From NCBI GenBank assembly GCA_043808785.1, contig JAZDEL010000002.1, positions 60,001 through 92,000 of the forward strand: a DNA stretch of 32,000 bases, given 5' to 3'. Both the position numbers and the translations under genes were made by a program. The notes below the pieces were generated by a model. It searched no databases. It was given only the letters and a program-made list of their open reading frames with translations, and had not been told where the DNA came from. This DNA comes from Candidatus Iainarchaeum sp. Its GTDB lineage: Archaea; Iainarchaeota; Iainarchaeia; Iainarchaeales; JAZDEL01. How positions within the stretch are numbered: the first letter of the stretch is position 1; every line of letters starts with the position of its first letter. This document shows positions 1,985 to 25,209 of the stretch, piece by piece.

Positions 1985-2539
1985 TTACCCTACTGTTATC
2001 TTCCCCGCTTCTTTTTGGACTGGGATGTCATACATCAGCCCCGATATGCTGCCGCTAATTGGGCAAATATTGTTATTGTACGTATTAACGGTTATTCCGC
2101 TCATGAAATTAATTTTGACAGTGCATTTTGTGTAGCATTTTCCGTCAGTTCCGGCGGTGGCTGTGGTGCAAACCAAGTTCCCCGCACTATCTTTGATTTT
2201 TCCGCATATGGTGCCGTTGTTCTCCTTTTGAACGTTTACCTGGTACTCGAACACCGTTATTCCCTCGGAATCGCACCTCAGTTCCGCGCCCTTAGGCACG
2301 AAAACCGAAATGGTTTCCTTCGCCTCGCCGCTGCTCGAGCCGACGTAATTCACTGCATTCACAATTTTCTCCGCGGCAAACCTCGCCTCCCCCAGCCCAA
2401 TTACCCCCCGTGCAGCGCCCCTGCCGATGTCTATCTCGGGCAAAATCAGCGTCTGTATGTAAAGCAGCATGAGTATTATGAGCAGTATGAACTCTATGGA
2501 TGCCTGCCCATTCACGCCCCGAAAAAAAGAACGTTCCAT
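1985..2539 (-). CDS. pilin-like protein with class III signal peptide (DUF361 type), minor pilin candidate
   Basis: The N-terminus MERSFFRGVNG|QASIEFILLIILMLLYIQ fits QxSxExxxL. The gene overlaps the peptidase gene end by 28 nt. Confidence 0.75.
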   Translation of the reverse strand: MERSFFRGVNGQASIEFILLIILMLLYIQTLILPEIDIGRGAARGVIGLGEARFAAEKIVNAVNYVGSSSGEAKETISVFVPKGAELRCDSEGITVFEYQVNVQKENNGTICGKIKDSAGNLVCTTATAGTDGKCYTKCTVKINFMSGITVNTYNNNICPISGSISGLMYDIPVQKEAGKITVG

Positions 2540-3648
2540 AGCAAATCCCCGGCAACCTGCAGCACCAGATATGCGATGAGCACTGCGGGCACGAAAGGCG
2601 CGCTCCTGCTCACAACAATGCGGTCCTCAAGCCTTTTTTCCTTCACAAGCCCCCGAAGCTCTTCCAGCTGCTCCGTGCTCACACCCGCGGCCCTGTGCGG
2701 GCCTGCAATGACCCTGCCCTGCGGCGCAAGCATGTGCAGCAAATCTTCTAACCTATTACCCATTATGTACTTAATAACTTTTTGCATTTGGATGCCCTCG
2801 AGCCTTTCCGCCTTTCCGCCATTTTCAACTATGGTTTCGGCGACAATATCCCCTTCCTGCAGTGCGGTTATTTTCACCTCCTGCCTAAGCACCTTTGTCC
2901 TGCTCATTGTGACGAGTTTTATGGTTGCATAGAGCACAAACAGTCCGAGCGCAATTCCCCCTGCGCCGTAAGCCGCGTTCACAGGGTTCTGCAGCAGAGC
3001 GAACAAAAACGCGGCGGCAACAATCACATACTGCGCGGTTCCCTTAACCAGCCCGAGCGCAATCAAAACAGGCAGCAGCAGTATTGCGGGCAGGCTCAGG
3101 TATGTGAGCACCGCGGAAACGCCCGCAACCGCAAGCCCCGCAATCAGCGCCTGCCTGCCCCTAACCCTGAACTCACGCATCATCTCCGCGCGCAGTTCCT
3201 TCCTTTTTGCAAGTGCATTGATGCTTATTAGCGCTGCGTATGGCGCCATTGAAAAAATGCTGAAAAGGAAAAGGGTAAGCGGAAAAATCGGCTGGGTTAT
3301 TGTGCCAGCGAGCGGCAGCTGCAACCCTAAAATGCCCTGAACCATTGCATAGTTCACGGGGTTAAGTGCGGCAAGCCCCGTCATTAATTTGACATCTCCC
3401 CCAGCCCAGACGCCCAGCCTCCACAACAAATATGACGCCCCGAATGTTACCGCGGTTACAGCCGCAACAACCGCAAAGTGCTCCATTCCCGCCCCGAGCG
3501 CGGAATAAAGCAGCTGCAGCGCCAGCCCGCCGAAAATCAGGGAGTAGGTCAATCGGTTCGGTATTATCCTTGAGCGCAAATCGCTCCATGTGGCGTATGC
3601 GAGCGCGGCGAGCGAAATGCAGAAGAAAATCAGCGGGAACATAAGCAA
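2512..3648 (-). CDS. archaeal prepilin peptidase, A24 family (EppA/PibD-like)
   Basis: Both catalytic Asp motifs are present: ATWSD(23)LRSRIIPN and WAGGD(85)VKLMTG (GxGD type). The protein is polytopic. A soluble segment of about 100 aa (roughly residues 250-350) precedes the last helix. Confidence 0.85.
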   Translation of the reverse strand: MLMFPLIFFCISLAALAYATWSDLRSRIIPNRLTYSLIFGGLALQLLYSALGAGMEHFAVVAAVTAVTFGASYLLWRLGVWAGGDVKLMTGLAALNPVNYAMVQGILGLQLPLAGTITQPIFPLTLFLFSIFSMAPYAALISINALAKRKELRAEMMREFRVRGRQALIAGLAVAGVSAVLTYLSLPAILLLPVLIALGLVKGTAQYVIVAAAFLFALLQNPVNAAYGAGGIALGLFVLYATIKLVTMSRTKVLRQEVKITALQEGDIVAETIVENGGKAERLEGIQMQKVIKYIMGNRLEDLLHMLAPQGRVIAGPHRAAGVSTEQLEELRGLVKEKRLEDRIVVSRSAPFVPAVLIAYLVLQVAGDLLWNVLFFGA

Positions 3649-3661
3649 CCCCCCGCCGCCT

Positions 3662-3741
3662 GCCCGCGCAAAAAGAAAATCAGGGGGGGCAAAAATAACC
3701 CCTCCCCTATAAGCCCGCTGAAAAAGAAAATTGGCGGGGGC
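3662..3741 (-). terminator. two copies of a 29-nt GC-clamped oligo-T element between pilin gene and peptidase gene (candidate attenuating terminators)
   Basis: Plus strand 3662-3690 is GCCCGCGCAAAAAGAAAATCAGGGGGGGC and 3713-3741 is GCCCGCTGAAAAAGAAAATTGGCGGGGGC. On the coding (minus) strand each reads ...ATTTTCTTTTT... flanked by complementary G/C runs. Confidence 0.35.
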
Positions 3742-3753
3742 AAGTAAGCACCC

Positions 3754-3930
3754 TCAGGAGGATTGCATAAGGCTTGAAATCGTGCCGTCCCGCTCCGTAA
3801 TCATCATTTCCTTTGCCTTTCCCGAGACAATCTGCAGGTTAAATGCTATAACTGTTGCCGCCATAACCATTATGACGGCAAACAGCACCATCAGCAAATA
3901 CTCGAACGATACCTGCCCCTTGCTGTCCAT
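3754..3930 (-). CDS. short (58 aa) Flp-sized type IV pilin, class III signal peptide
   Basis: MDSKG|QVSFEYLLMVLFAVIMVMAATVIAF... The ATG at 3930 is preferred over the track's GTG at 3939. Confidence 0.8.
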   Translation of the reverse strand: MDSKGQVSFEYLLMVLFAVIMVMAATVIAFNLQIVSGKAKEMMITERDGTISSLMQSS

Positions 3931-3963
3931 GGGAATCACTGTTACATGCTCGGGCTTTTCGAC

Positions 3964-4140
3964 TTATGTGGTTCCGGCGTGCGTCTTCATATTGCCTATG
4001 CCGTGGGTCACAAGTTCGTTTACCTCGTTGCCCGTCGAGTGCCCAAGCCCCAGTATCAGCACTATCACAACCACCGCAACAAGCACCGCCCCCCCTATGA
4101 GCAGCAGGTATTCAAGTGCGCCTTGTCCTTTCTCATCCAT
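3964..4140 (-). CDS. short (58 aa) Flp-sized type IV pilin, class III signal peptide; major pilin candidate
   Basis: MDEKG|QGALEYLLLIGGAVLVAVVVIVLILG... The ATG at 4140 is preceded by a strong Shine-Dalgarno sequence AAGGAGGT (4148-4155, minus strand) and its own TATA box. The track start at 4182 would overlap that TATA box. Confidence 0.85.
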   Translation of the reverse strand: MDEKGQGALEYLLLIGGAVLVAVVVIVLILGLGHSTGNEVNELVTHGIGNMKTHAGTT

Positions 4141-4180
4141 TTTTGCAACCTCCTTAGGTTTATTACCATTACATGTTTTC

Positions 4181-4190
4181 AATATTTAAA
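4181..4190 (-). promoter_or_regulatory. TATA box (TTTAAATATT on minus strand) of the internal pilin promoter
   Basis: Read directly. It lies about 45 nt upstream of ATG 4140, leaving room for a leader of about 20 nt that contains the Shine-Dalgarno sequence. Confidence 0.45.
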
Positions 4191-4215
4191 CCTTTTTACG
4201 CGCTTTTTAACCCCG

Positions 4216-4389
4216 CTAGCCGAACTTACCCGCGGTGTTTTGCGCAAGTTCGTTAGCCTCGGGCGCAATCTGCTCCCTGACCATTGTTTTCAGCAGCCAC
4301 ATGATAACGAAAGCGAAAAGTATTATCCCCGCAAGCAGCAGAAGCAGTTCCATGCTTGTCTGCCCCCTCTCATCAAGACCGCGCATCAT
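4216..4389 (-). CDS. short (57 aa) Flp-sized type IV pilin, class III signal peptide (not in ORF track, below size cutoff)
   Basis: Hand translation gives MMRGLDERG|QTSMELLLLLAGIILFAFVIMWLLKTMVREQIAPEANELAQNTAGKFG*, with stop TAG at 4216-4218. The ATG at 4389-4387 overlaps the TGA (4388-4386) of the upstream platform gene as ATGA. Confidence 0.75.
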   Translation of the reverse strand: MMRGLDERGQTSMELLLLLAGIILFAFVIMWLLKTMVREQIAPEANELAQNTAGKFG

Positions 4390-5333
4390 GCACCCACGCC
4401 CCCCACCATAAGCCCCGAAACAACCTGCGACAGCATGTAAACCACATATGCTATTAGCAATAGTATTGGGAAGTATATAATGCTTTTGTTCATATTGCCC
4501 TCGCGCATGAGCGACATCATAATGCTCGTGGCAACTATCTCTATGAATATGTAAATCTGTATTGCCGAGGCAATTGTGCCCGCCGCCTTCTTCGCGGCAT
4601 CCGCCCTCGCAACCTCAACAGCCCCTGCGGACGCATTTATTAGCACGTTCAATATAGTCCCCACAAACCCGAAAATCATCGGTGCGACAATCGCCCCCGC
4701 CGCAACCATAAACAGCACCTGCATCATTGTCCTGCTTTTCCTCTCCCTGCCTATCCTGTGCATTGCCCTCACATCCTCTGAAATCTGGTCGAGGATATCC
4801 GCAAGCCCCGCTCCCGAGTGCACGGCATCCGTAATTATTGTCACAGTCCTCCTCACAAGCTGCGAGTTCACGTTATCGCTCAAAGTCCTCAGGGAGTTCT
4901 CGAAATTCTCCCCCTCCTCAAGCTTCCTCAAAACAGTGTCCATCTCTTTCTTCAGCGCCCCGTATTCCGACATCGCAACCTCGCGCAGCGCATACTCGTA
5001 GGTGCCGCCCGCCTTCAGGGTGTCGGCCATCTGCTTCAGCGCATCCGGCAGCGTTTCCTCTATTGCCGAAACCCTCTGCATCGCCATCAGGTAAGGGTAG
5101 CCGAGCATTACATCAAGCACGACAATGGAAAACACCGCGGCAATATGCGGCAGTTCCGGGAAGAACACAAAACACCCGAACCCCGCAACAGCGGAAACAA
5201 CAAGCGAAATCAATATCCAGAGCGTTGCGTCAACAGCGAACCCCGACTGCTCAAGGTTATCGGAGTACGACCTCACGGCCTTTATCCCGTTCAGCACGGG
5301 AATTTTCCTTGCAAGTCTCCACTGCATTTTCAC
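4386..5333 (-). CDS. type II secretion system F-domain platform protein, TadC/EpdK-like
   Basis: 315 aa with an N-terminal TM segment, a cytoplasmic helical domain (LPDALKQMADTLKAGGTYEYALREVA...) and C-terminal TM helices, which is the single T2SSF-domain architecture. The GTG start at 5333 overlaps the upstream stop as GTGA. Confidence 0.8.
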   Translation of the reverse strand: MKMQWRLARKIPVLNGIKAVRSYSDNLEQSGFAVDATLWILISLVVSAVAGFGCFVFFPELPHIAAVFSIVVLDVMLGYPYLMAMQRVSAIEETLPDALKQMADTLKAGGTYEYALREVAMSEYGALKKEMDTVLRKLEEGENFENSLRTLSDNVNSQLVRRTVTIITDAVHSGAGLADILDQISEDVRAMHRIGRERKSRTMMQVLFMVAAGAIVAPMIFGFVGTILNVLINASAGAVEVARADAAKKAAGTIASAIQIYIFIEIVATSIMMSLMREGNMNKSIIYFPILLLIAYVVYMLSQVVSGLMVGGVGA

Positions 5334-6478
5334 ACCTTCGGCTGCGAAACCATGAGGTAAAGGATGAGATATCCCAGCACCATAGGCATCACAAGTACAT
5401 AAATAATCATTATAAGCAGCGGGTCAAGCTTCATTCCCCCGAACCCGACAGGCGCGTTCGTAATCCCGCCGATTATCGCGATGAACACCGGCGCAACAAT
5501 CGCGCCGACAATGAAAATCACCCCGAAGAAGTTTATCTTCTCCCCGAAATCACGGACCTTCATCCTGAGTTCGAAAGAAACATCCTCCGCAATCGTGCCC
5601 ATTATTGTCGAGAGGTTCCCGCCAGTTGTCATCGCCCTTATGGTGTGCATCAGTGCGCTCCTCAGCGCCTTGGACTGCGTGCGGTTCGCAAAGTTCCTCA
5701 ATGCGTCCTTTGTGTCAACGCCCTCCTCTATTTCATTTATGGTGCGCGCAAACTCCTCGCTCAAAATCCCGTAATCCGAAGTCGCAACAGCCTGCAGCGT
5801 CTTGTAAAGCCCTATTCCCGCGCGCAACTCGCTCGCCATATGCCTCAGCGCAAAGGGCAGTTCCGCGCTTACCGCATCTCCCCTCCTGTTTGCAGCGCTC
5901 TTCGGCAGGAGCAGCATGCCTATTTCCGCGAATATGAAAACCGCAATTCCCCCCGGCAGCGCTATGATTATAGGCACATTCGCAAAAAGCGCTATTGCCG
6001 CGAAAAACACCGCGCCAAGGACAAAAGCAATAAGCCCCACAACCGCGGTTATGGCAAGATACTGCCCTGTGCTGAACTTCATGTTCGCGCTGTAAAGGTA
6101 ATACCCCAGCTGCTGCGTAACCGGAAACTTCTTCAGCAGCACGGTTATCGGTTTCGTTATTCCCTGCAGCGCAAGGTAAATTTTCCCCAGCCGCTGCACC
6201 AGGGGGTTCTTGAACTCCGCAAGCTCCTCGACGCCCTGCACACTCACCTTTGCGGTTTCCCCCTCCGCAATCATCCCCCTTAAATCCCTTAACTTTCCGC
6301 CGACCTGCTCAAACTCCACGCCCTGCTCCACGTACTTCTTCTTCATCTTGCTTACTATGCGCTCCACTTCCTCGACATCAACAGCCTCATCCTGCTTTGC
6401 CTCCGGTTTCTGGAAAGCCTTTGCCCCGGCCTTCTTCTTTTCCTCAACCCTTTTCCTTATCTGGTCAAGACCTGGCAT
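5330..6478 (-). CDS. type II secretion system F-domain platform protein, TadB/EpdJ-like, with N-terminal cytoplasmic extension
   Basis: T2SSF-like core: ELPFALRHMASELRAGIGLYKTLQAVATSDYGILSEEFARTINEIEEGVDTKDAL, plus flanking TM helices. The ATG at 6478 (MPGLDQIRK...) has an upstream GGAAGGGGGA and is preferred to the track start at 6544. Confidence 0.8.
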   Translation of the reverse strand: MPGLDQIRKRVEEKKKAGAKAFQKPEAKQDEAVDVEEVERIVSKMKKKYVEQGVEFEQVGGKLRDLRGMIAEGETAKVSVQGVEELAEFKNPLVQRLGKIYLALQGITKPITVLLKKFPVTQQLGYYLYSANMKFSTGQYLAITAVVGLIAFVLGAVFFAAIALFANVPIIIALPGGIAVFIFAEIGMLLLPKSAANRRGDAVSAELPFALRHMASELRAGIGLYKTLQAVATSDYGILSEEFARTINEIEEGVDTKDALRNFANRTQSKALRSALMHTIRAMTTGGNLSTIMGTIAEDVSFELRMKVRDFGEKINFFGVIFIVGAIVAPVFIAIIGGITNAPVGFGGMKLDPLLIMIIYVLVMPMVLGYLILYLMVSQPKV

Positions 6479-9400
6479 TTTGCTTCCCCCTTCCGTCCAG
6501 GAACGCCTGGCACGCGAGCGAAACTTCGCCCATTGAATGCACATTATTATTGACGAGGTTCTTCAAAAACTTTTCCCTTGCGGCAATTTCCGCCTCAATC
6601 TGCTTTTTCCCCGTTCCTGTGCGTTTCATAATCTCGTTAAGGTATGAAACAGGCGCGGCGCCCCTCTTCATCGTGTCTGTTGCGGGTTCCCATTCATAAA
6701 CCGTCTGCGTTGAAACCTTGCCCTCAAGCGCCCCCCCCACTTCGGCAATTTCCGTAATCCTCCTTATTGTGCCCTTCCTCTTGTCGTGCAGCCTGTGTTC
6801 TATGATTATGAAATCAAGCCCGCTGAGCATCACTTCGGGCACGTTCATCGGAGGAGATGTAACCCTCACAACGGTTTCCTGCGGCGAGTTCGCGTGCACC
6901 GTGCCAAGAGAGTTGCCCACAATGGCGGATTCCGCGACAAAATTGTGCGGTTTCATGCCGCTCCTTTCCTTTTCGCTTACAGTCAAATCGTAAACAAATC
7001 CACTGTAATCGAATTCATGTATGTGCGTAATTCGGTCCCAGAATATTTCGCTTTCCGCAAGCCGTCCGAGCGCATCGGCATTGATGCCCACGGCCTTAAA
7101 TGCATTGGCAAGCTTTTTCACGCTCTCCCTTGACGGCATCCTTTCGCCGAGCCTGAAAAAACGCAGAAGCCCCTGGCTTATTCCCGCCTTTCTCGCAATT
7201 GCCCTCTCGCTTGTGCCCACTTCCCTGGCCTCCGCAATCTTTTCACGGATAAGCGTATTGCACGGGATAACGTCAACATTCGTGTTTGCCTTTACTTTCC
7301 CCGAAATCAGTGCCTCAAGCTTTTTTATTTTTTCGGGATATTTCAGCGGAAACGCAGAGTAAAACTTGCGCACATTTTCAATGCCGTAAACATAAAGCCT
7401 GAACCACTTGCTGTTCGCAGCCCTTGACTCGTATTTCCGTGAAACTATCCCCTCAGTAAGCAGGGCATAGCGCATAAAGTCTATGTAATGCTCGTTGCCG
7501 CAGGTGAAAACGAGCGCATTATTCTCAAGGTCGACATAGCCCTCAGCATCAAAGAAGCCCGCAACAAACTCGTTAAGCGAGGAGCAGAAATGGGCGTTTG
7601 ACATTTTTACATTGCTTCTCGAGCCAGCGGGAATGGCAAACATTTGCTGAGCCCGCCTCGCCCTGCCTATGCCGCTTACCCTCGCCTCAAAGCAATTCTT
7701 TTCAGGTGACGCAGCCCTTACCCCGACATGGGCGTTGCCAAACTCTTTTTTCATGAATTCCGAGAACTGCGGAACTATGCGTTCGTCTTCCGTGAAAAGG
7801 CTGATTCTTCCTTCATTGCATTCGTAGCATTTGCCGTTCTTTTCGCGCAGCCGCTTTGTATCCAATATGTGCCCATCACCGTGCAGCAGGCCGCTCCAAT
7901 ATTCCACTTCAGCCCTGCCCGCGCCCGCATCGCAGTGCAGCCTTGCCGGGGTTGCAACAAACGTCGCTTCCTCAAGATTTTCTGCAGGAACCTGCCCCAC
8001 GTTTCCGCATAGGGTGTAAAAAGGGTGATTGGGCGTAACAATTATTTCAGAGCCGCTTGCAAGCCTTATGTGCCTGACCTTTCCCGAATAAGGCTTTCTC
8101 CTTGCCTCGACAACCTTTTCGCGCTGCATCTTTCCGCTGTCGTTGAGCGAATTTATTTCCCTGCCTTCTGCATCGGCAACTTCCCATTCGCCTTCGTGCC
8201 TGACGCCGCCTTTTTCAATCAGGCTGTCAACAAAGGAACCTATCTCTTCAATGCCGTCAACAAAAGGAATCTTTGTGCCAAAAGTAAGGCAGCCGTCGTG
8301 CCCGGTATTCATCGCCGTGAAAAGCGTGAACGCCTCCGCGTGCCTTACCTCCCCGACAATAACCCTGTCAGGCCTCATCCTGAGCGAGTTCTTCGTGAGT
8401 ATGTCGAGCGTTAACTCCCCCGTGCCTTCAATGCCCGGCGGCCTTGCCTCAAGCCTTATCCAGTGCTTCAATGGGAGATTAAGTTCCGCGGTGTCCTCTA
8501 TGGAAACAATCCTCTCATTTGCGGGAATGAACGCTGCAAGCACGTTCAGGGTTGTGGTTTTTCCGCTTCCCGTTCCGCCTGAAATAAGTATGTTTGCAGG
8601 CTTCACTCCCAAGCCTTCAACAGCAAGCCAGAGGAACGCCGCAACCTCCGTGCTCAAAGTGCCCATGTTTATCAAATCAACTATCGAGTAAGGGTCCTCC
8701 CTGAACTTCCTTATTGTAAGCGAGGAGCCGCTCACGGATGCGGGCGGCATTGTTGCGTTAACCCTGCTGCCGTCCGGCAGCCTTGCATCAAGCAGCGGGG
8801 AGCTCATGTCCATGCGCCTCCCGACCTGCCTTGCGATCCTGTTTATCAGGTCCTGCACCTCTTTCTCGGAATAGAATTCTATATTGCTCTTCATCATCTC
8901 ATATTCCCTGTGGAAAACATAAACAGGTTTGTTCGGCCCTATCACCATTATTTCCTCCAGCTTGTCGTCCTTTATCAGCGGGTCTATTAGCCCGTAACCG
9001 ACCATCTCCCTCACAACAGACTGCGCGTAAAATTCCATCTTGCCTTTCGGAATCTGCATCTCCGTGCTCTCGCGCATTATCTCCATGACTTTTTGGTAGT
9101 AAACATTCTCCCTCTCCTCGAGGTCGCGGATTTTGTACGGGGTTATGCTTATGAGCCTTGTTGCCGCCTCCTTAAGTGTGTTGATTATGCTCTTCTCCGC
9201 GCCGCGCGCCCTCGGCACGGGCGTCCAGTAATAAAGCAGCGGCTCCCCCGCAACCCTGTAAATTTTCGTGTTTCCGTAAGAGGCAATCTCGGTTTTCTTT
9301 GCGCCCTCGAGTTCCTGCTCTATTGTTGACGCGCCCCCCTCTTCAGGCGAGTAAGCCTCGGCCTCCGCAGCGGGTTCCGCGGTTTCTTCCCCTGCGCCTC

Positions 9401-9794
9401 CCCGCATTGTGCCCGCCTCTTCCACCTCATCCTCTTCGGGCACGGTTCTGCTTTCGACAGGCCGCGGTTCGGGCGCCCTCATCTTCGGCGCGCCGACAGC
9501 TGACTTCATCTGCTTAAGTATCTCGCTTTTCATTCCAGTGGTGTCTGCCACCCTGGGTGCGGAAACAGGCACATGCCTCGGCGCAGGATAAGCAGCAGCC
9601 CTTTGCGCAGGTGCAGCAGTAACCCTTGGTGCGGCCGCAACCGCAGCCCTGGCGGGCTGAACAACCGCCTTCCTCTGCAGCATCTCCCTTGGCCTCGGTG
9701 CCGCGCTTTCCGCAATTTCCGCCCCCCCGCTCACTGAGGAACCCTCCTTTTTCTTCTTCACGCGGCTGATAAGGTCCTTGAGGTAGTCCGCCAT
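6465..9794 (-). CDS. type II/IV secretion system ATPase (FlaI/VirB11/KlbA/TadA family, EpdL-like pilus assembly ATPase), intein-containing precursor
   Basis: Walker A is ISGGTGSGKTTTLN. The Asp/Walker B region is RPDRVIVGEVR. The His-box TGHDG|...|SLGTVHANS is split by the intein. The extein is 649 aa, and its first approximately 170 aa are A/P/E-rich low complexity. Confidence 0.9.
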   Translation of the reverse strand: MADYLKDLISRVKKKKEGSSVSGGAEIAESAAPRPREMLQRKAVVQPARAAVAAAPRVTAAPAQRAAAYPAPRHVPVSAPRVADTTGMKSEILKQMKSAVGAPKMRAPEPRPVESRTVPEEDEVEEAGTMRGGAGEETAEPAAEAEAYSPEEGGASTIEQELEGAKKTEIASYGNTKIYRVAGEPLLYYWTPVPRARGAEKSIINTLKEAATRLISITPYKIRDLEERENVYYQKVMEIMRESTEMQIPKGKMEFYAQSVVREMVGYGLIDPLIKDDKLEEIMVIGPNKPVYVFHREYEMMKSNIEFYSEKEVQDLINRIARQVGRRMDMSSPLLDARLPDGSRVNATMPPASVSGSSLTIRKFREDPYSIVDLINMGTLSTEVAAFLWLAVEGLGVKPANILISGGTGSGKTTTLNVLAAFIPANERIVSIEDTAELNLPLKHWIRLEARPPGIEGTGELTLDILTKNSLRMRPDRVIVGEVRHAEAFTLFTAMNTGHDGCLTFGTKIPFVDGIEEIGSFVDSLIEKGGVRHEGEWEVADAEGREINSLNDSGKMQREKVVEARRKPYSGKVRHIRLASGSEIIVTPNHPFYTLCGNVGQVPAENLEEATFVATPARLHCDAGAGRAEVEYWSGLLHGDGHILDTKRLREKNGKCYECNEGRISLFTEDERIVPQFSEFMKKEFGNAHVGVRAASPEKNCFEARVSGIGRARRAQQMFAIPAGSRSNVKMSNAHFCSSLNEFVAGFFDAEGYVDLENNALVFTCGNEHYIDFMRYALLTEGIVSRKYESRAANSKWFRLYVYGIENVRKFYSAFPLKYPEKIKKLEALISGKVKANTNVDVIPCNTLIREKIAEAREVGTSERAIARKAGISQGLLRFFRLGERMPSRESVKKLANAFKAVGINADALGRLAESEIFWDRITHIHEFDYSGFVYDLTVSEKERSGMKPHNFVAESAIVGNSLGTVHANSPQETVVRVTSPPMNVPEVMLSGLDFIIIEHRLHDKRKGTIRRITEIAEVGGALEGKVSTQTVYEWEPATDTMKRGAAPVSYLNEIMKRTGTGKKQIEAEIAAREKFLKNLVNNNVHSMGEVSLACQAFLDGRGKQNARS
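6912..8291 (-). mobile_element. intein (460 aa) with LAGLIDADG homing endonuclease, inserted in the His-box of the pilus ATPase
   Basis: Residues 502-961 of the precursor. Block A is CLTFGT (Cys1). Block B is VTPNHPF (TxxH). The LAGLIDADG motifs are GLLHGDGHI and VAGFFDAEGYV. Block F is FVYDLTV. Block G is HNFVAESAIVGN followed by the +1 Ser. Removing these residues restores the contiguous motif NTGHDG-SLGTVHANS. Confidence 0.85.
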
Positions 9795-18452: not shown

Positions 18453-18601
18453 GATTATCCCTTTTGTGTTGTTGTAAATATAATGGTTATGTTGCGCGCT
18501 GGCTGCGAACCAATTGAGCCATAAAGGACTAAATATCAATAAAATATGTATATTTTGTCCTTTATAGGTAGGTTTTTAACCATTTGGGCGCCAATCGTAT
18601 T

Positions 18602-19828
18602 ATGGCCTCCAAACTCGATGTTTTTCTGGCAGTGTGCCTTTACCCCGGGCTTTCCGCCGCGGGGATAGTAAAAAAAATAGGCAAGCCCCATGCCTCCTAC
18701 AATTCGGCATATCGCCTTCTCCGCGAACTGAAAGCCGAAGGGCTGGCTTCCGAGGAAAATGGCCTCTTCAGCGCTTCAAAAACAAAAAATGCCCGCACCC
18801 TCGCAAGCCTCGTCTACTTCTGCTTCAAGAACGGAATAGATTACAACAAGGCTGTTTCGAAAAAAACAGCAGAGTTCGTGAAGGTTGGGCTGGAGAAAGG
18901 CAAAATAAGCGGCATGCCTTTCGATGCGAAAACCGTCAGGAGGATTATGGGCCAGCTTTCAAGGGGCGGCTTCGCAATAGTGGAATCAAGGAAGCCGTTT
19001 TCATGCAGGATAGTGCCCTCGCACTTCACGCGCCTGCTTGCCGAATATTTTTTCGGCAAAATAAAAGTAAGGTGCCCCTCGCTGCCGGACTGCCTTGATG
19101 AGGCGCTTGTGGATTCGGCGCTCGAAAAGCAGTTTTCCGCATACAAGCGCCTCGAGAAGGAAAAATTCGCGTTCGACGAAACAGGGTTCATTTACGTAAG
19201 CCTCTCCCTCGAGGGAAACACCCTGACCCTTTCCGAAACCGAGAAAATAATAAGGCAGAACATCGCCCCCGCATCAAAGCCTTTCAGGGATGCGCAGCAG
19301 GTGCTCGATTACAAGAAAGCGCTCGACGGGTTTGTTTTTTCCGCGGATGCAATCACGCGCGAATCCGTACTTGAATTCCACAAGGTTGCGATGGGCTCCC
19401 TTGCCGCGGGTGCGGGCAAATTCAGGGCCGGGAATGTCAGGATAAAAGGCAACCCGGAATTCAAAACCCCCGATTGGAGGGAACTCCCCGCGCGGCTCGG
19501 CGATTTTTTCAGCGGCGCAAATGCCCCGCAGGGGAAAAAGGCTTCGGCTGCGGCAATCGTGGCGCGCGCGGCATTTTTGCACAACGAATTCCAGCGCATA
19601 CACCCTTTCATAGACGGGAACAGCAGGACTGCAAGGGCAATCTTCCTCAAGGCGCTGGCAATGAACGGCTTCCCGCCAATAAAACTGCAGGTCGGCTTTT
19701 CAGACCAATATATGGCTCTCACAAAACTCAGCAAGGAGAGGGACGACAAAAAATTCGCCCTCCTGATGAAGCAGATTGCTCTGGAAAACCTGAAGCATCT
19801 CGCGAGGAAGATGGAATACGGGTTCTAA
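18602..19828 (+). CDS. Fic-domain protein with N-terminal winged-HTH and an internal inhibitory motif (class II Fic)
   Basis: The Fic motif is HPFIDGNSRTAR (canonical HxFx[DE]GNGRxxR with G to S). The upstream SLSLEG matches the [ST]xxxE[GN] inhibitory helix motif. The N-terminal wHTH-like segment is GIVKKIGKPHASYNSAYRLLRELKAEGL. The ATG at 18602 is preferred to the TTG at 18584. Confidence 0.8.
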   Translation: MASKLDVFLAVCLYPGLSAAGIVKKIGKPHASYNSAYRLLRELKAEGLASEENGLFSASKTKNARTLASLVYFCFKNGIDYNKAVSKKTAEFVKVGLEKGKISGMPFDAKTVRRIMGQLSRGGFAIVESRKPFSCRIVPSHFTRLLAEYFFGKIKVRCPSLPDCLDEALVDSALEKQFSAYKRLEKEKFAFDETGFIYVSLSLEGNTLTLSETEKIIRQNIAPASKPFRDAQQVLDYKKALDGFVFSADAITRESVLEFHKVAMGSLAAGAGKFRAGNVRIKGNPEFKTPDWRELPARLGDFFSGANAPQGKKASAAAIVARAAFLHNEFQRIHPFIDGNSRTARAIFLKALAMNGFPPIKLQVGFSDQYMALTKLSKERDDKKFALLMKQIALENLKHLARKMEYGF

Positions 19829-19862: not shown

Positions 19863-21599
19863 TCACGCCCCGCTCACAACCATCCCCACTCCCTTTTCAA
19901 GCAGTTCCCCTGCGGTGCGCATGTTTTGCGCGCCAAGGGTGAAATTGTAGCGCTCCCTGATAATTTTGCTCCCGAGGAACTTTTCCCTTTCTTCCGCGCC
20001 CAAAGCATGGAACTCGTATCCGTGCTTCCTCTTATTCTGCGCATTGAACCTTATTATCCCGCGGTCGTTGCAGAATTCGCATATTTCCCATTCGGGAAGC
20101 GCATCCGCGATTTCCTGCAGGGCTTTTTCGGCAAGCCTCGCGCTTTTGCCCTTTGCAAGCATCTCGCACGACTCAAAAAACCCAAACAAACCGAGTACGG
20201 GTTTAAGTTCTTCATGGTTAATTCCCGCCTTTTTCAGTGCCGAGTTTCCCTGCAGGATTTTCCCCTTCAGTTCCCCCAGCTCGTGCAGAACCTTGAGCCT
20301 TTCCCCGAGCGAGGAGAGGAAGCGCTGCCCGTCCTTTGCCTCGAGCGCAAGTTTCGGCATGTTAATGCCTGCAAGCATGCTTATCCCGCGCCCGGAGCGC
20401 AAAAACAAACCCCCATTAAGCGCGGCTGGTTTTGTTTCCCCGTAGTTAAGGAAGGAAATGTTCCGCTCCCCAAGCACCTTGCGCTCAAGCAGGCCGAGCT
20501 TGTATTTTGTGTCAAGCAGAATGCAGAAGCGCAGGGCAGCGGCGGATTCGCGCACAAGCGAATTCGCGAATTCAATCGCGCTTTCGGAATGCGCCCCGTA
20601 CTTCTCAAGTTCGCCCTCCAAATAAAGGGTTGCGCTGTGCGCAGGCAGTTCGCACGCGGGCAGTTCCTTGCACTGCACACATTTCATCTGCAGGAAGAAC
20701 AGCCGAGCGATTTCCGCAAATCTCTTTCTCTGCATTTTTTCAAGGAGAGGGGAAAGGGAGGCGTTCACCGAATCCGCGCAGACAGGGAGGGTAATAAGGC
20801 GGTTCAGCCATGCAATTTCCGCAGCAAGCAGGGCGAGTGCCTCCTCAGCGCTCCCGCACTCTGCGGGCGGGGCAAAGAACTTCGCATATGCGTAAGGCTT
20901 CGAGGCAAAATCGTGCACGGCGCAAATGTGCATGTCTCCTGAAAAATGCAGTTCCCTCGCGGGGGAGGGGATTACTTTCGCCCATGCGTATTCCCGCATT
21001 GCTTCGCGCCCGAATTTTTCCGCGGCATCATGTGCACTGCCTGCCGCGGAATTTTCCGCGCCCTGCGAAACCGCAGCCGCAATATCGTGCACCGGCACAC
21101 CTAACCTCGCATAATTGCAGTACGCATCTTCATAACCGAGCGCGAGCAGTTTTGCATTAACCAGATTGCGTATGAGCGCGGTATTCAGGTATTTTATCTT
21201 CATCTCCTTGAGCTCGTCCTCCACCTCGTTGCTTATCCTCTCCGCCAAGCTCCTGCTCAGCGCGGTTTCCTTGAGCAGCGATTTCGTTATGTTTCCGCGG
21301 TCGAAACCCTCCAAGGTTTCCGCGCTGGTGTGCACGCGCATCTCCCCGAACCTTGCGAACTCCCTTGCAGCTTCAGGGTTTGACTTGCGCAGCTCCTCGA
21401 GTGCAAGGGAGCGCATTTCCGCGATTGAAAGCGCCCCCGTCCCCGCAGCCTCGCGCCCGCCGGAAACTTGAGTGCCCTCTGCAGATGACAGCACCTTGAC
21501 AACGCGCATCACTTCCCATTTTGTTGCGCCCGCCTTTGTGCACTCCGCGGCAACCTTTTCAACGGACGATTTCAGGGGCTTCTGGCTTTCGGAAGGCAT
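19863..21599 (-). CDS. ATP-cone domain protein with class III ribonucleotide reductase (NrdD)-like body, apparently lacking the C-terminal Zn-ribbon/glycyl-radical domain
   Basis: A full ATP-cone is present: MRVHTSAETLEGFDRGNITKSLLKETALSRSLAERISNEVEDELKEMKIKYLNTALIRNLVNAKLLALGYEDAYCNYARL. A partial second cone precedes it. GINMPKLALEA resembles the NrdD INLPRIA segment. No RVxGY-type terminus is present. The assignment rests on remembered motifs only. Confidence 0.55.
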   Translation of the reverse strand: MPSESQKPLKSSVEKVAAECTKAGATKWEVMRVVKVLSSAEGTQVSGGREAAGTGALSIAEMRSLALEELRKSNPEAAREFARFGEMRVHTSAETLEGFDRGNITKSLLKETALSRSLAERISNEVEDELKEMKIKYLNTALIRNLVNAKLLALGYEDAYCNYARLGVPVHDIAAAVSQGAENSAAGSAHDAAEKFGREAMREYAWAKVIPSPARELHFSGDMHICAVHDFASKPYAYAKFFAPPAECGSAEEALALLAAEIAWLNRLITLPVCADSVNASLSPLLEKMQRKRFAEIARLFFLQMKCVQCKELPACELPAHSATLYLEGELEKYGAHSESAIEFANSLVRESAAALRFCILLDTKYKLGLLERKVLGERNISFLNYGETKPAALNGGLFLRSGRGISMLAGINMPKLALEAKDGQRFLSSLGERLKVLHELGELKGKILQGNSALKKAGINHEELKPVLGLFGFFESCEMLAKGKSARLAEKALQEIADALPEWEICEFCNDRGIIRFNAQNKRKHGYEFHALGAEEREKFLGSKIIRERYNFTLGAQNMRTAGELLEKGVGMVVSGA

Positions 21600-22302: not shown

Positions 22303-22860
22303 TTAACGTTTTCTGATAATTTTAGGGGCTATTTTTCTGATTAGATTTCGGCGATTTTGCTCATATTGCTTGAGTTTGTTTGCGTAACCCTCCCAAGGGT
22401 TTGCAGTTGGGTGGAAGCCACTCCACATAAGCGGCAAATATGAACCGCGCACGAAAACGTTTCCCTCCCCGAGTATTTCCTTAATTTTCATGTATGCGGG
22501 CTCGTTTATTCTCTTGTAGCACCCCTCTGCCGCACCGCCAAAAGACATAACCTTCACTTTTTCGCCTTTGCCCAGTTTTTTCTTTAGCAGGGAAATTTTC
22601 TCGGAAAACGCCTTGTCGTAACCGCCAAAGTCAGTAAATTCATTGTCAACTGGCCCCAGCGCAATTAGCCTCTTGAACCCGGCCAATTCTTTCGCAAGGG
22701 GCCCGAATAAACGCTTCATCAGGGAACCTTTTTTTGACGGGGCGTATACAGAAAAATAAATTACATACAGTTTCTCCTTCCCCCTACACTGCAATTTTAA
22801 AAATTTCTGCATCTCGCCAGCACTGGCATAATCCGGGTGTATTGCCAATATTAGCTTCAT
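22303..22860 (-). CDS. hypothetical protein, compositionally atypical (low GC)
   Basis: 185-aa ORF with no motif recognised. Hand-counted 60-nt lines give about 35-48% GC, against about 53-68% in neighbouring genes. Confidence 0.5.
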   Translation of the reverse strand: MKLILAIHPDYASAGEMQKFLKLQCRGKEKLYVIYFSVYAPSKKGSLMKRLFGPLAKELAGFKRLIALGPVDNEFTDFGGYDKAFSEKISLLKKKLGKGEKVKVMSFGGAAEGCYKRINEPAYMKIKEILGEGNVFVRGSYLPLMWSGFHPTANPWEGYANKLKQYEQNRRNLIRKIAPKIIRKR

Positions 22861-22965
22861 AAAGCAATCAGTAATGCGAACTTTATTTTAATGTAATTTG
22901 TTTATTGCGCCAAATTGAGGCAAACCATAGGTTATTTATTTGTTCAACGCCCTGATGTTGTTCTT

Positions 22966-25209
22966 ATGAAGTTGATAGTTGCCGAGAAGGCAATTGCAGG
23001 CAGGCGCATTTCGGCAATCCTCGCTGAACGGGAAGTGCCGCAGTCCTCTATTGAAGGGAGCCCCGCATTCGAATTCGAGCGCGCGGGAGAGGGCAATGTA
23101 ATGGTTCCTTTGCGCGGGCATATAATGGATGTCGAATTTCCAAGCATTTACCGCTACTGGCAGGGCACTGACCTTAAAAAACTCACAAAGGCCGAAGTGC
23201 TTTACATAGACACCGAGAAGCGCATAATTGCCGCGCTCAAAAAGGCGGCAAAGGGCGCGACAGAACTCATCGTGGCAACAGATGCCGACAGGGAGGGGGA
23301 AAGCATAGGCGCGGAGGCGATAAGGTTCGTAAAGGGCGTGAACCCGAAAATAAAAATAAGGCGCGCGTATTTTTCGGCAATAACCCCGAAGGACATCGAA
23401 GCCTCGTTCTCCGCCCTTGAGGAGGTTGATTACAACCTTGCCGATTCAGCAGACTGCAGGCGGGAAATAGACCTTATATGGGGCGCCGTGCTCACGCGCT
23501 TCCTCTCGCTTGTTAGCGGCCAGATGGGGAAAGAATTCCTGAGCGCGGGAAGGGTGCAGACGCCCGTGCTTGCGATAATTGTAGATAGGGAAAAGGAGCG
23601 CATGAAATTCATCTCAAAAAAATACTGGGTCCTCAATGCGATTTTTGAAAAGGACGGCCAGAGGTTCCTTGCGGAGCACAAGGAAGGCAGGTTCTGGGAG
23701 AAGGGGGAGGCGGACAAGGCTCTTGCAAGGCGCTCCGATAAGGGCAAAGTAGTTTCGGTAGAGCGCAAAAGGCGCATACTCAGCAGGCCGCTGCCTTTTA
23801 ACACCACAAGCTTCCTGCGCGCTGCAACACACCTTGGCTTCAGCGCAGGGCAGGCGATGAACGTCGCGGAATCCCTTTACCAGGCAGGCTACACCTCATA
23901 CCCGCGCACCGATAACACAGTTTACCCTAAGAACACGGACATGCAAGGCATACTGCAGGAGATTGCAAAAAATGCCGAGTTCGAGCCGCTTGTTAAAAAA
24001 ATACTCGCAAAGGGCGCCCTTGACCCTTCGCGCGGCAAGGCTACAAAGGACCACCCCCCCATACACCCAGTCAGTGCCGCACCCAAGCACAAGCTGGATG
24101 CGCGCTCGTGGAAAATTTACGAACTCATTGTAAGGCGCTTCCTCGCAACCCTCGCCGATGACGCGGAAACAGAGAACCTTGCGGTAACGATAGACCTGAA
24201 CAAGGAACCCTACATAGCGCGCGGCCAGCTGATAGTGAGGAAGGGCTGGAAGGAATTCTACCATTACTCGGAACTAAAGGAAGTGATACTGCCGAACCTC
24301 GAGCGCGGGGATACAGTGCTCCTTATCGACCTCGAAATGCTCGAGAAGGAAACTTTGCCCCCCGCGTCCTACTCCCAGGCAGCGCTCATAAAACTCATGG
24401 ATGAAAAGGGCATCGGCACAAAAAGCACGCGCCACGAAATAATCCAGAAACTTTACGCGCGCCATTATATTTCGGGCACAAAGGCGATTGTGCCGAACAA
24501 AATCGCGTTTTCGGTAATAGATGCGCTTGAAAAGTATGCCGCAAAGGTAACCGAACCCAAAATGACGGCAGAACTTGAGCAGGAAATGGACTCGATTGCC
24601 GCGGGGAAGAAAACAAAGGAACTTGTTGTCGAGGAATCGCGGGAAATGCTTTCATTAATCCTCGCGGAACTGCTCGAGCAGAAGGACAAAATAGGCGCGG
24701 AGTTGCGCTCCGCGGTAAGGGACGACGCAATCCTCGGCAAGTGCGACAAGTGTAACGAGGGGATGCTCAGGAAACTGAAAAGCAGGAACAACAAGTTTTT
24801 CCTCGCGTGCAACAAATACCCGAAATGCATGAACACCTATCCTTTGCCGCAGAAAGGCAGGATTATTCCCCTTGAGAAGCCCTGCCCCTCGTGCGGCAAG
24901 CCGATGATAAAGGTCGCGGGAGGGCGTTTCACCTATTCAATGTGCATAGACCCCGCATGCCCGTCAAAGGCGGACTGGGGAAAGAAGAAGGAAGAGCGCG
25001 AAGCGGAGAAGGCGAAAGCCGCCGCAGCAGCGTCCGGGCAGGCGGAGGCGGGGCACGCTGCTCCGGGAGCCGCGCAGGCGAAAGCCGGGCCAGCGCCCGC
25101 TGCAAAATCGGCGGCAAAAACCTTGCCGAAAGCCGCGCAGGCGGAACCTGCACCTTCCAAACCCGCAGTGCCGAAGAAAAGGGGCCGCCAGAAAGCCAAA
25201 CCTGCATAA
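22966..25209 (+). CDS. topA: DNA topoisomerase, type IA (archaeal TopA/Topo III-like) with two C-terminal zinc ribbons and a K/A/P-rich tail
   Basis: Toprim: MKLIVAEKAIAGRRIS and ATDADREGESIG. The catalytic Tyr motif is GYTSYPRTDN. The zinc ribbons are CDKCNEG...CNKYPKC and CPSCGKP...CIDPACPS. The ATG at 22966 is preferred to the track start at 22915. Confidence 0.92.
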   Translation: MKLIVAEKAIAGRRISAILAEREVPQSSIEGSPAFEFERAGEGNVMVPLRGHIMDVEFPSIYRYWQGTDLKKLTKAEVLYIDTEKRIIAALKKAAKGATELIVATDADREGESIGAEAIRFVKGVNPKIKIRRAYFSAITPKDIEASFSALEEVDYNLADSADCRREIDLIWGAVLTRFLSLVSGQMGKEFLSAGRVQTPVLAIIVDREKERMKFISKKYWVLNAIFEKDGQRFLAEHKEGRFWEKGEADKALARRSDKGKVVSVERKRRILSRPLPFNTTSFLRAATHLGFSAGQAMNVAESLYQAGYTSYPRTDNTVYPKNTDMQGILQEIAKNAEFEPLVKKILAKGALDPSRGKATKDHPPIHPVSAAPKHKLDARSWKIYELIVRRFLATLADDAETENLAVTIDLNKEPYIARGQLIVRKGWKEFYHYSELKEVILPNLERGDTVLLIDLEMLEKETLPPASYSQAALIKLMDEKGIGTKSTRHEIIQKLYARHYISGTKAIVPNKIAFSVIDALEKYAAKVTEPKMTAELEQEMDSIAAGKKTKELVVEESREMLSLILAELLEQKDKIGAELRSAVRDDAILGKCDKCNEGMLRKLKSRNNKFFLACNKYPKCMNTYPLPQKGRIIPLEKPCPSCGKPMIKVAGGRFTYSMCIDPACPSKADWGKKKEEREAEKAKAAAAASGQAEAGHAAPGAAQAKAGPAPAAKSAAKTLPKAAQAEPAPSKPAVPKKRGRQKAKPA

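Follow-up and report, generated by a model that had tools for sequence, protein, structure and literature searches.

A 32,000-nucleotide stretch of a Candidatus Iainarchaeum genome (contig JAZDEL010000002.1, positions 60,001 to 92,000; hereafter the window) carries, on its minus strand, a pilus ATPase gene that is interrupted by an intein of 460 amino acids (aa). We find that this intein is probably a splicing-competent element of the class-1 type whose homing endonuclease is active or was so until recently, and that it lies at the KlbA site in the pilus ATPase of an Iainarchaeum-like member of the DPANN archaea. In closely related hosts two intein lineages, distinguished by their motifs, occupy this one site, and the residues at position 1, at the penultimate position (G:6) and at +1 covary between them. 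The host protein is a CpaF/TadA-type ATPase, with a Walker A motif, a His box, a T2SSE domain and a place in a pilus operon. The features of the precursor gene are as follows.

6465..9794, minus: precursor open reading frame (ORF), 1109 aa, CpaF/TadA-type secretion/pilus ATPase with intein (Pfam T2SSE and CpaF 8rkd matches)
8292..9794, minus: N-extein, residues 1-501
8556-8579, minus: Walker A motif GGTGSGKT, in the N-extein
8292-8315, minus: His-box half AMNTGHDG, end of the N-extein
6912..8291, minus: intein of 460 aa (Cys1 to Asn460; residues 502-961 of the precursor), penultimate Gly459
7932..8291, minus: N-terminal part of the HINT domain, intein residues 1-120
8253-8291, minus: block A CLTFGTKIPFVDG
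8016-8054, minus: block B GSEIIVTPNHPFY, with Thr86 and His89
7287..7931, minus: LAGLIDADG endonuclease domain, intein residues ~121-335
7866-7901, minus: LAGLIDADG motif 1 YWSGLLHGDGHI, with Asp139
7533-7568, minus: LAGLIDADG motif 2 FVAGFFDAEGYV, with Asp248 and Glu250
7053..7286, minus: five-helix accessory domain of the helix-turn-helix (HTH) kind, intein residues ~336-413 (Pfam, AlphaFold2)
7095-7238, minus: Pfam HTH_3 match
6912..7052, minus: HINT domain, C-terminal portion, intein residues 414-460
6933-7001, minus: block F GFVYDLTVSEKERSGMKPHNFVA, with Asp435 (F:4) and His449 (F:13)
6909-6932, minus: block G ESAIVGN, then Ser+1
6885-6911, minus: His-box half SLGTVHANS, start of the C-extein
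6465..6911, minus: C-extein, residues 962-1109 and stop codon

An intein in the His box of a pilus ATPase

Within the precursor, the Pfam T2SSE domain covers residues 268-504 (E=1e-40, above the curated cutoff). When the exteins are joined (AMNTGHDGSLGTVHANSP), they align without a gap over the junction to the solved CpaF 8rkd (AMNTGHDGSMGTLHANSP; E=7e-81), in agreement with the proposal of an earlier, sequence-only reading that an insert splits the His box NTGHDG/SLGTVHANS (a slash marks an intein junction throughout). The insert is real and well past anything that chance would give. The placement given in that reading, 460 aa at 6912-8291 or residues 502-961 of a 1109-aa ORF, is exact, and its choice of host, a Tad/CpaF-type pilus ATPase in an archaeal type IV pilus operon, likewise stands. 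One homologue bears the JGI label 'CpaF family ATPase/intein/homing endonuclease'. With the intein removed the site reads TTCACGGCGATGAATACCGGGCACGACGGC/TCTCTTGGCACGGTGCACGCGAACTCGCCG, and the predicted junction peptide of the spliced ATPase includes NTGHDGSLGTVHANSPQ. The NCBIfam equivalog models for FlaI, TadA and VirB11 each score the host ATPase below their own cutoffs, and for this reason its subfamily name is not settled.

The insert has the domains of a large intein, as had been proposed: a LAGLIDADG endonuclease and an HTH stretch set into a splicing domain with Cys1, TxxH, terminal Asn, Ser+1 and penultimate Gly. The motifs quoted in support of that proposal (TPNHPF, GLLHGDGHI, FFDAEGYV, FVYDLTV, IVGN/S and the HTH stretch) were all located, and the profile models agree with them. 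Pfam Intein_splicing matches precursor residues 538-961 (E=8e-18; 65 bits, cutoff 35.8), LAGLIDADG_3 residues 741-813 (E=4e-12, above the curated cutoff) and HTH_3 residues 853-900 (25.2 bits, cutoff 23), and NCBIfam intein_Nterm matches residues 502-594, beginning exactly at Cys502 (47.9 bits, cutoff 24.5). By the marks of a class 1 intein, the element has Cys1, TxxH, the block F Asp and His, and a C-terminal Asn followed by Ser+1; the penultimate His, which such inteins usually have but do not require, is missing. As to the endonuclease, there are two LAGLIDADG helices that end in catalytic acidic residues (GLLHGDG and GFFDAEG) within a LAGLIDADG fold. Conservation was read from an alignment of 26 intein relatives (A1), in which Thr86, His89, Asp139, Tyr434, Asp435, Thr437, His449 and Asn460 are invariant and Asp248 and Glu250, of the second LAGLIDADG motif, are at least 90% conserved.

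An AlphaFold2 model built from A1 (predicted local distance difference test score 92.6, predicted template modelling score 0.90) shows three domains: the HINT domain is beta-rich, the endonuclease is of alpha/beta type, and residues 345-413 form a bundle of five helices. The best Foldseek matches to the model are PI-PfuI (1dq3), TliVMA (7qss) and PI-TkoII (2cw7), at template modelling (TM) scores of 0.67-0.72, and the endonuclease part matches I-DmoI with a target TM score of 0.7-0.77. PI-PfuI (1DQ3), TliVMA (7QSS) and PI-TkoII (2CW7) share with the window intein a HINT domain, a LAGLIDADG domain and an accessory domain in the same position; they differ in their hosts (RNR, VMA and Pol) and are only 16-18% identical to it in sequence. 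All three have the canonical penultimate His. In the window intein the HTH domain follows the endonuclease and precedes the C-terminal HINT segment, and since TliVMA and PI-TkoII have an accessory domain at this same place, described as helix-turn-helix-like (PMC8966425), the HTH stretch is a module of a known kind.

We infer the chemistry of each splicing step, and the DNA cleavage, as follows. The precursor would be translated whole; Cys1 would undergo an N-S acyl shift, aided by Thr86 and His89 of block B and Asp435 of block F, and Ser+1 would take the N-extein by transesterification. Asn460 would then cyclise, and its likely helper would be His449 of block F, not a penultimate His. With its His box rejoined as NTGHDG-SLGTVHANS, the ATPase would be active. 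Alleles that lack the intein would be cut at the rejoined site, either by the excised intein or by the precursor, and the intein would thereby be copied into them (homing). The suggestion of the sequence-only reading that pilus assembly would need splicing is sound to the extent that it would hold for any intein in a catalytic motif; it marks out no special feature of this one.

Two observations concern the host protein outside its catalytic core. Residues 1-170 of the ATPase (9285-9794, minus) form a low-complexity extension rich in Ala, Pro and Glu, with a guanine plus cytosine (GC) content of 62%, and this extension is 37-77% identical among close relatives whose ATPase cores share 87-98%. 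Among the homologues, P0003 (1680 aa) consists of four tandem CpaF-type ATPase modules and P0059, P0072 and P0079 of two, with a His box of its own in each module.

Two intein lineages at the KlbA site

The Mja KlbA precursor (2JMZ) starts MNTGHDG/ALAYDEPIYLSDG (MNTGHDG/ALAYDE). The KlbA comparison suggested at the outset thus gives an identical insertion site, and because it is identical the window intein is another occupant of the site and does not define a new one. Mja KlbA (MJ0781; 2JMZ/2JNQ) resembles it further in that the host is a homologous secretion-type ATPase with the same MNTGHDG/ site and in its motifs TxxH (block B) and YDLTV...H (block F). It differs in being a 168-aa mini-intein, against 460 aa with endonuclease and HTH domains in the window, and where the window intein has Cys1, Gly and Ser+1, the KlbA inteins have Ala1, a G:6 Ser and Cys+1. 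Of other KlbA inteins, those of Pfu and Pho have endonucleases and a length of about 520 aa, and that of Pab is about 196 aa long. Class 2 inteins are Ala1 KlbA orthologues in which the first splicing step is skipped (PMC4031507; PMC2807308). PMC4031507 describes class 2 solely as Ala1 KlbA orthologues and does not mention a Cys1 occupant of the site, and a 2015 survey (PMC4760082) counts 21 archaeal VirB11-type and 5 CpaF-type inteins. Querying with the partial Mja KlbA sequence gave no matches. In literature of incomplete coverage, we found no paper on a Cys1 intein at the KlbA site and none on inteins in DPANN pilus ATPases.

Of the 120 best-matching database homologues of the host, 51 have an intein at the KlbA site and about 70 are intein-free. 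We extracted and tabulated 49 of the 51 inteins and judged the other two (P0015 and P0026) by eye. They fall into two sets. The Cys1 set, to which the window intein belongs, has about 26 members of some 460 aa that run from Cys1 to Gly-Asn/Ser; 22 of the 25 tabulated have exactly Cys, Gly and Ser, and the others are single departures, with Ala or Cys in the G:6 position or, once, Cys at +1. The Ala1 set has about 25 members of some 437 aa (434-438) that run from Ala1, at times Met, Ile or Ser, to Ser-Asn/Cys. The same split is seen in 20 species-representative genomes. Because the Ala1 set clusters with Mja KlbA in trees, with the Cys1 clade apart, we take it to be the class-2 KlbA family, whose members here possess an endonuclease and an HTH domain. 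The window intein, to judge from its motifs, is a class-1-type occupant of that known site: of the features of class 2 it has the KlbA site, but it has neither Ala1 nor Ser at G:6 with Cys+1, and it does not cluster with Mja KlbA. The sequence-only reading had described the KlbA inteins as mini-inteins. Full-length inteins are nevertheless common here: some 25 of the Ala1 set, of 434-438 aa, have both LAGLIDADG and HTH domains.

How the two lineages are related is a separate matter. An exhaustive profile-free search gave 591 relatives at E <= 1e-3. An intein-only search of a word-indexed protein database gave 6 matches and was uninformative. The window intein scores 80-150 bits against the Ala1 clade (best 144-149) and 58 bits against inteins in the PDB. 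Its nearest relatives outside secretion ATPases are archaeal MCM P-loop-site inteins, at 100-130 bits (best 132). The MCM inteins (GDPGxxK/C...VHN/S) are like it in their HINT, LAGLIDADG and HTH_3 domains and in being class 1 with Cys1 and Ser+1, and differ in host, site and a canonical penultimate His. Neighbour joining gives the Cys1 clade 98% bootstrap support with P0127 included; the tree is unrooted, and the Cys1 clade, the Ala1 clade and the MCM inteins form a three-way split in which a sister pair is not identifiable. We had considered the Cys1 and Ala1 sets sister clades from their bit scores and dropped this view in the face of the MCM scores and the three-way split. One possible origin, which we hold tentatively and stop short of favouring, is that a change of splicing chemistry at the site gave rise to the Cys1/Gly/Ser+1 clade from a class-2 KlbA ancestor, or the other way round; the alternative is independent invasion by another lineage. 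In support of a switch, the lineages share the site and the three-domain layout, an alignment of about 425 positions gives 25% identity between them, and the best class-2 scores are slightly higher than that of the best intein from another host. Against it, scores nearly as high come from the MCM P-loop inteins, whose domains are the same, and the unrooted tree does not say which of the three groups are sisters.

Several observations on individual members and groups stand beside this picture. Ala1-set inteins (P0036-P0120; L017-L026) are common in Iainarchaeum and Micrarchaeia genomes. In some of them the first residue is Met, Ile, Val or Ser, and in a few the G:6 position is taken by Gly, Ala or His. 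The intein-bearing alleles P0015 and P0026 have the N-side His box NTGQDG, with Gln for the conserved His. P0127, a relative in the Cys1 clade, has the junctions NTGHEG/RLCADARV...LLTSN/S, with an apparent Arg1 and a Cys two residues in; its boundary may be shifted, or the intein degenerate. Two inteins at NTGHDG/ sites come from contigs with bacterial labels, a Cys1-type intein in P0122 (a Desulfitobacteriaceae metagenome-assembled genome) and an Ala1-clade intein with Ser at position 1 in L024 (Candidatus Falkowbacteria), which reflects either mis-binning or transfer to bacteria. The endonuclease domain of the Cys1 clade, unlike that of the Ala1 clade, contains 18 additional residues, RLREKNGKCYECNEGR (intein residues 146-163, ~7803-7856, minus), which the model shows as an extended beta-hairpin. 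A further 7 residues specific to the clade are inserted in the loop of block F (SEKERSGMKP). We rejected zinc binding by the CxxC of NGKCYECNEG, as only one of its two Cys is conserved in A1.

Selection and mobility

Named relatives are metagenome-assembled genomes of Candidatus Iainarchaeum/Diapherotrites (DPANN), the nearest being JBDRDO010000088, with 83% intein identity. Comparison of the window gene with those of two relatives, whose inteins are 87% and 83% identical to its own, gave ratios of nonsynonymous to synonymous substitution rates (dN/dS) of 0.10-0.12 for the endonuclease, 0.12-0.13 for the HTH domain, 0.05-0.22 for the HINT parts and 0.02-0.05 for the ATPase (extein) core, which shows purifying selection. 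Against P0002, synonymous divergence (dS) is lower for the intein than for the extein (0.84 against 1.35), a point in favour of mobility. An intein-free allele, P0107/L005, is syntenic with the window gene and has the site NTGHDG/CMGT; in it, as in the intein-free homologues generally, the exteins are contiguous, in line with the insertion that had been proposed. P0075 holds a 182-aa mini-intein of the Cys1 clade in a host 92% identical to hosts with the full intein. GC is 50.3% in the intein and 55.3% in the exteins; the sequence-only reading had been right that the intein is lower, although its estimate of about 48% was not. At third codon positions (GC3) the intein has 56.1%, against 65.8 +/- 3.0% in 13 other genes of the window, or about 3 standard deviations lower. 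The empty allele, the mini-intein, a dN/dS of about 0.11 and the low GC3 fit what would be expected of an active mobile intein.

Inteins and hosts have different histories. Hosts with Cys1-type and Ala1-type inteins are intermixed in the extein tree and the inteins themselves form separate clades, a disagreement from which transfers are implied. Mean extein-core identity is 65.5% between intein types and 68-69% within them, against 25% identity between Cys1-type and Ala1-type inteins, and for one pair, P0012 (Cys1) and P0092 (Ala1), the exteins are 86% identical and the inteins 30%. Such discordance is the expected product of repeated homing and replacement at one site, with the +1 residue tracking the intein type. 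Indirect evidence for site-specific cleavage of the intein-free allele comes from a patchy distribution, the empty allele, the disagreement of host and intein trees and the dN/dS of about 0.11. That class-1 Cys1/Gly/Ser+1 and class-2 Ala1/Ser/Cys+1 inteins interchange at the KlbA site of Iainarchaeal pilus ATPases, with the matching +1 residue travelling along, is in our estimate an evenly poised proposal.

These data also bear on whether the endonuclease still works. The intein could be splicing-competent with an inactive or decaying endonuclease, retained because precise loss is hard, as in a late phase of the homing cycle. Many archaeal inteins have an inactive endonuclease, PhoVMA among them (PMC8966425), and the clade includes a mini-intein derivative, P0075. 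We nevertheless regard this explanation as unlikely for the window intein, in which both catalytic acidic residues are kept (an invariant Asp139 and a Glu250 conserved to at least 90%), the endonuclease and HTH domains have a dN/dS of about 0.11, not above that of the splicing domain, and the disagreement of host and intein trees implies transfers.

The penultimate glycine

Penultimate Gly is found in 22 of the 25 scored members of the Cys1 clade and at the two junctions judged by eye, and in 9 of 10 species-representative genomes. On this sampling it is the clade consensus, neither a private mutation nor a lesion. Inteins of unrelated hosts and lineages, of the Bethlehem RDF and ClpP types, are comparable in having a class-1 layout with a non-His G:6. 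The mycobacteriophage Bethlehem gp51 RDF intein, a class 1 intein with penultimate Gly, splices fully and is slowed by a Gly-to-His change, and the block F His has been proposed as the substitute for the G:6 His (PMC5050341). The same paper cites archaeal inteins (Chen, Benner and Perler 2000) and the chloroplast C. eugametos ClpP intein as other cases without a G:6 His; restoring the His improves, worsens or leaves unchanged the splicing, depending on the intein. Because the effect varies by case, no prediction carries over to the window intein.

The sequence-only reading saw in this Gly a deviation that would slow or condition splicing. In its fuller form the idea is that the penultimate Gly, perhaps together with redox chemistry at Cys1, makes splicing slow or conditional and so provides post-translational regulation of the pilus. 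The penultimate His does normally help Asn cyclisation, and some His-less inteins improve when it is restored (PMC5050341); moreover, an unspliced precursor should be inactive, with the intein in a catalytic motif. Still, Gly is the clade consensus and not a one-off, the compensating His449 (F:13) and Asp435 are invariant, the published Bethlehem intein is efficient with Gly, and no redox trap or other sensor is evident in the sequence. Given the consensus, the invariant stand-in residues and the efficient published case, we see no basis for predicting slow or conditional splicing of the window intein, and regulation of this kind is improbable. Far less probable still, to the point that we set it aside, is a non-splicing insertion in a dead or repurposed ATPase gene, for which the missing penultimate His is the sole argument, against an intact 1109-codon frame, conservation of all other catalytic residues, an extein core dN/dS of 0.02-0.05 and an intact, conserved operon.

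Several points do weigh against a splicing-competent intein with a working endonuclease. The NCBIfam C-terminal intein model is absent among the best 25 of 26 matches, and our search of the literature found no splicing or cleavage experiment for the window intein or for any member of the Cys1 clade. According to PMC5050341 (its refs 51 and 52), loss of the penultimate His does impair some inteins. The low dN/dS of the endonuclease could reflect selection on folding or splicing in place of cleavage. Lastly, there is partial saturation in the dS values, and the trees were built by neighbour joining.

Significance

Both the site and the architecture were known beforehand, and dozens of Iainarchaeum/DPANN genomes hold close relatives; the window intein is one more endonuclease-bearing intein in an already catalogued site and host family. 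The occurrence of class-1-type and class-2 KlbA clades at one site is a modestly interesting by-product that may be of use to intein biochemists. It provides natural variants for asking which residues let Cys+1 attack an amide directly, and whether the G:6 Gly has been adjusted to suit Ser+1. If the two-lineage site is what it appears to be, it would offer a natural system for the relation between class-2 and class-1 splicing and for competition between inteins for a homing site. For DPANN biology, the implication is only that maturation of the pilus motor would require protein splicing.

Operon and neighbouring genes

The ATPase gene lies in a minus-strand archaeal type IV pilus operon in the order threonyl-tRNA synthetase, ATPase, two T2SSF proteins, three pilin-like ORFs and prepilin peptidase, an order kept in relatives, including L001. 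The part downstream of the ATPase comprises the following.

2512..6544, minus: pilus operon part downstream of the ATPase
5330-6544, minus: T2SSF (TadB/C-like) membrane protein 1
4386-5333, minus: T2SSF (TadB/C-like) membrane protein 2
4216-4389, 3964-4182 and 3754-3939, minus: three small pilin-like ORFs with class-III signal
2512-3648, minus: prepilin peptidase with A24 and Arc_PepC domains

As listed, the first T2SSF ORF overlaps the 3' end of the ATPase gene by 80 nucleotides (6465-6544). An internal Met (MPGLDQ...) would reduce the overlap to about 14 nucleotides, and the actual start is uncertain.

Elsewhere in the window no tRNA or Rfam features were found. A 414-aa Fic/DOC-domain protein (18584-19828, plus) adjoins a 578-aa protein (19863-21599, minus) whose sole Pfam match is an ATP-cone. 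GC dips to 42% at 22501-23000, separating a Pfam-unmatched ORF (22303-22860, minus) from a topoisomerase I gene (22915-25209).

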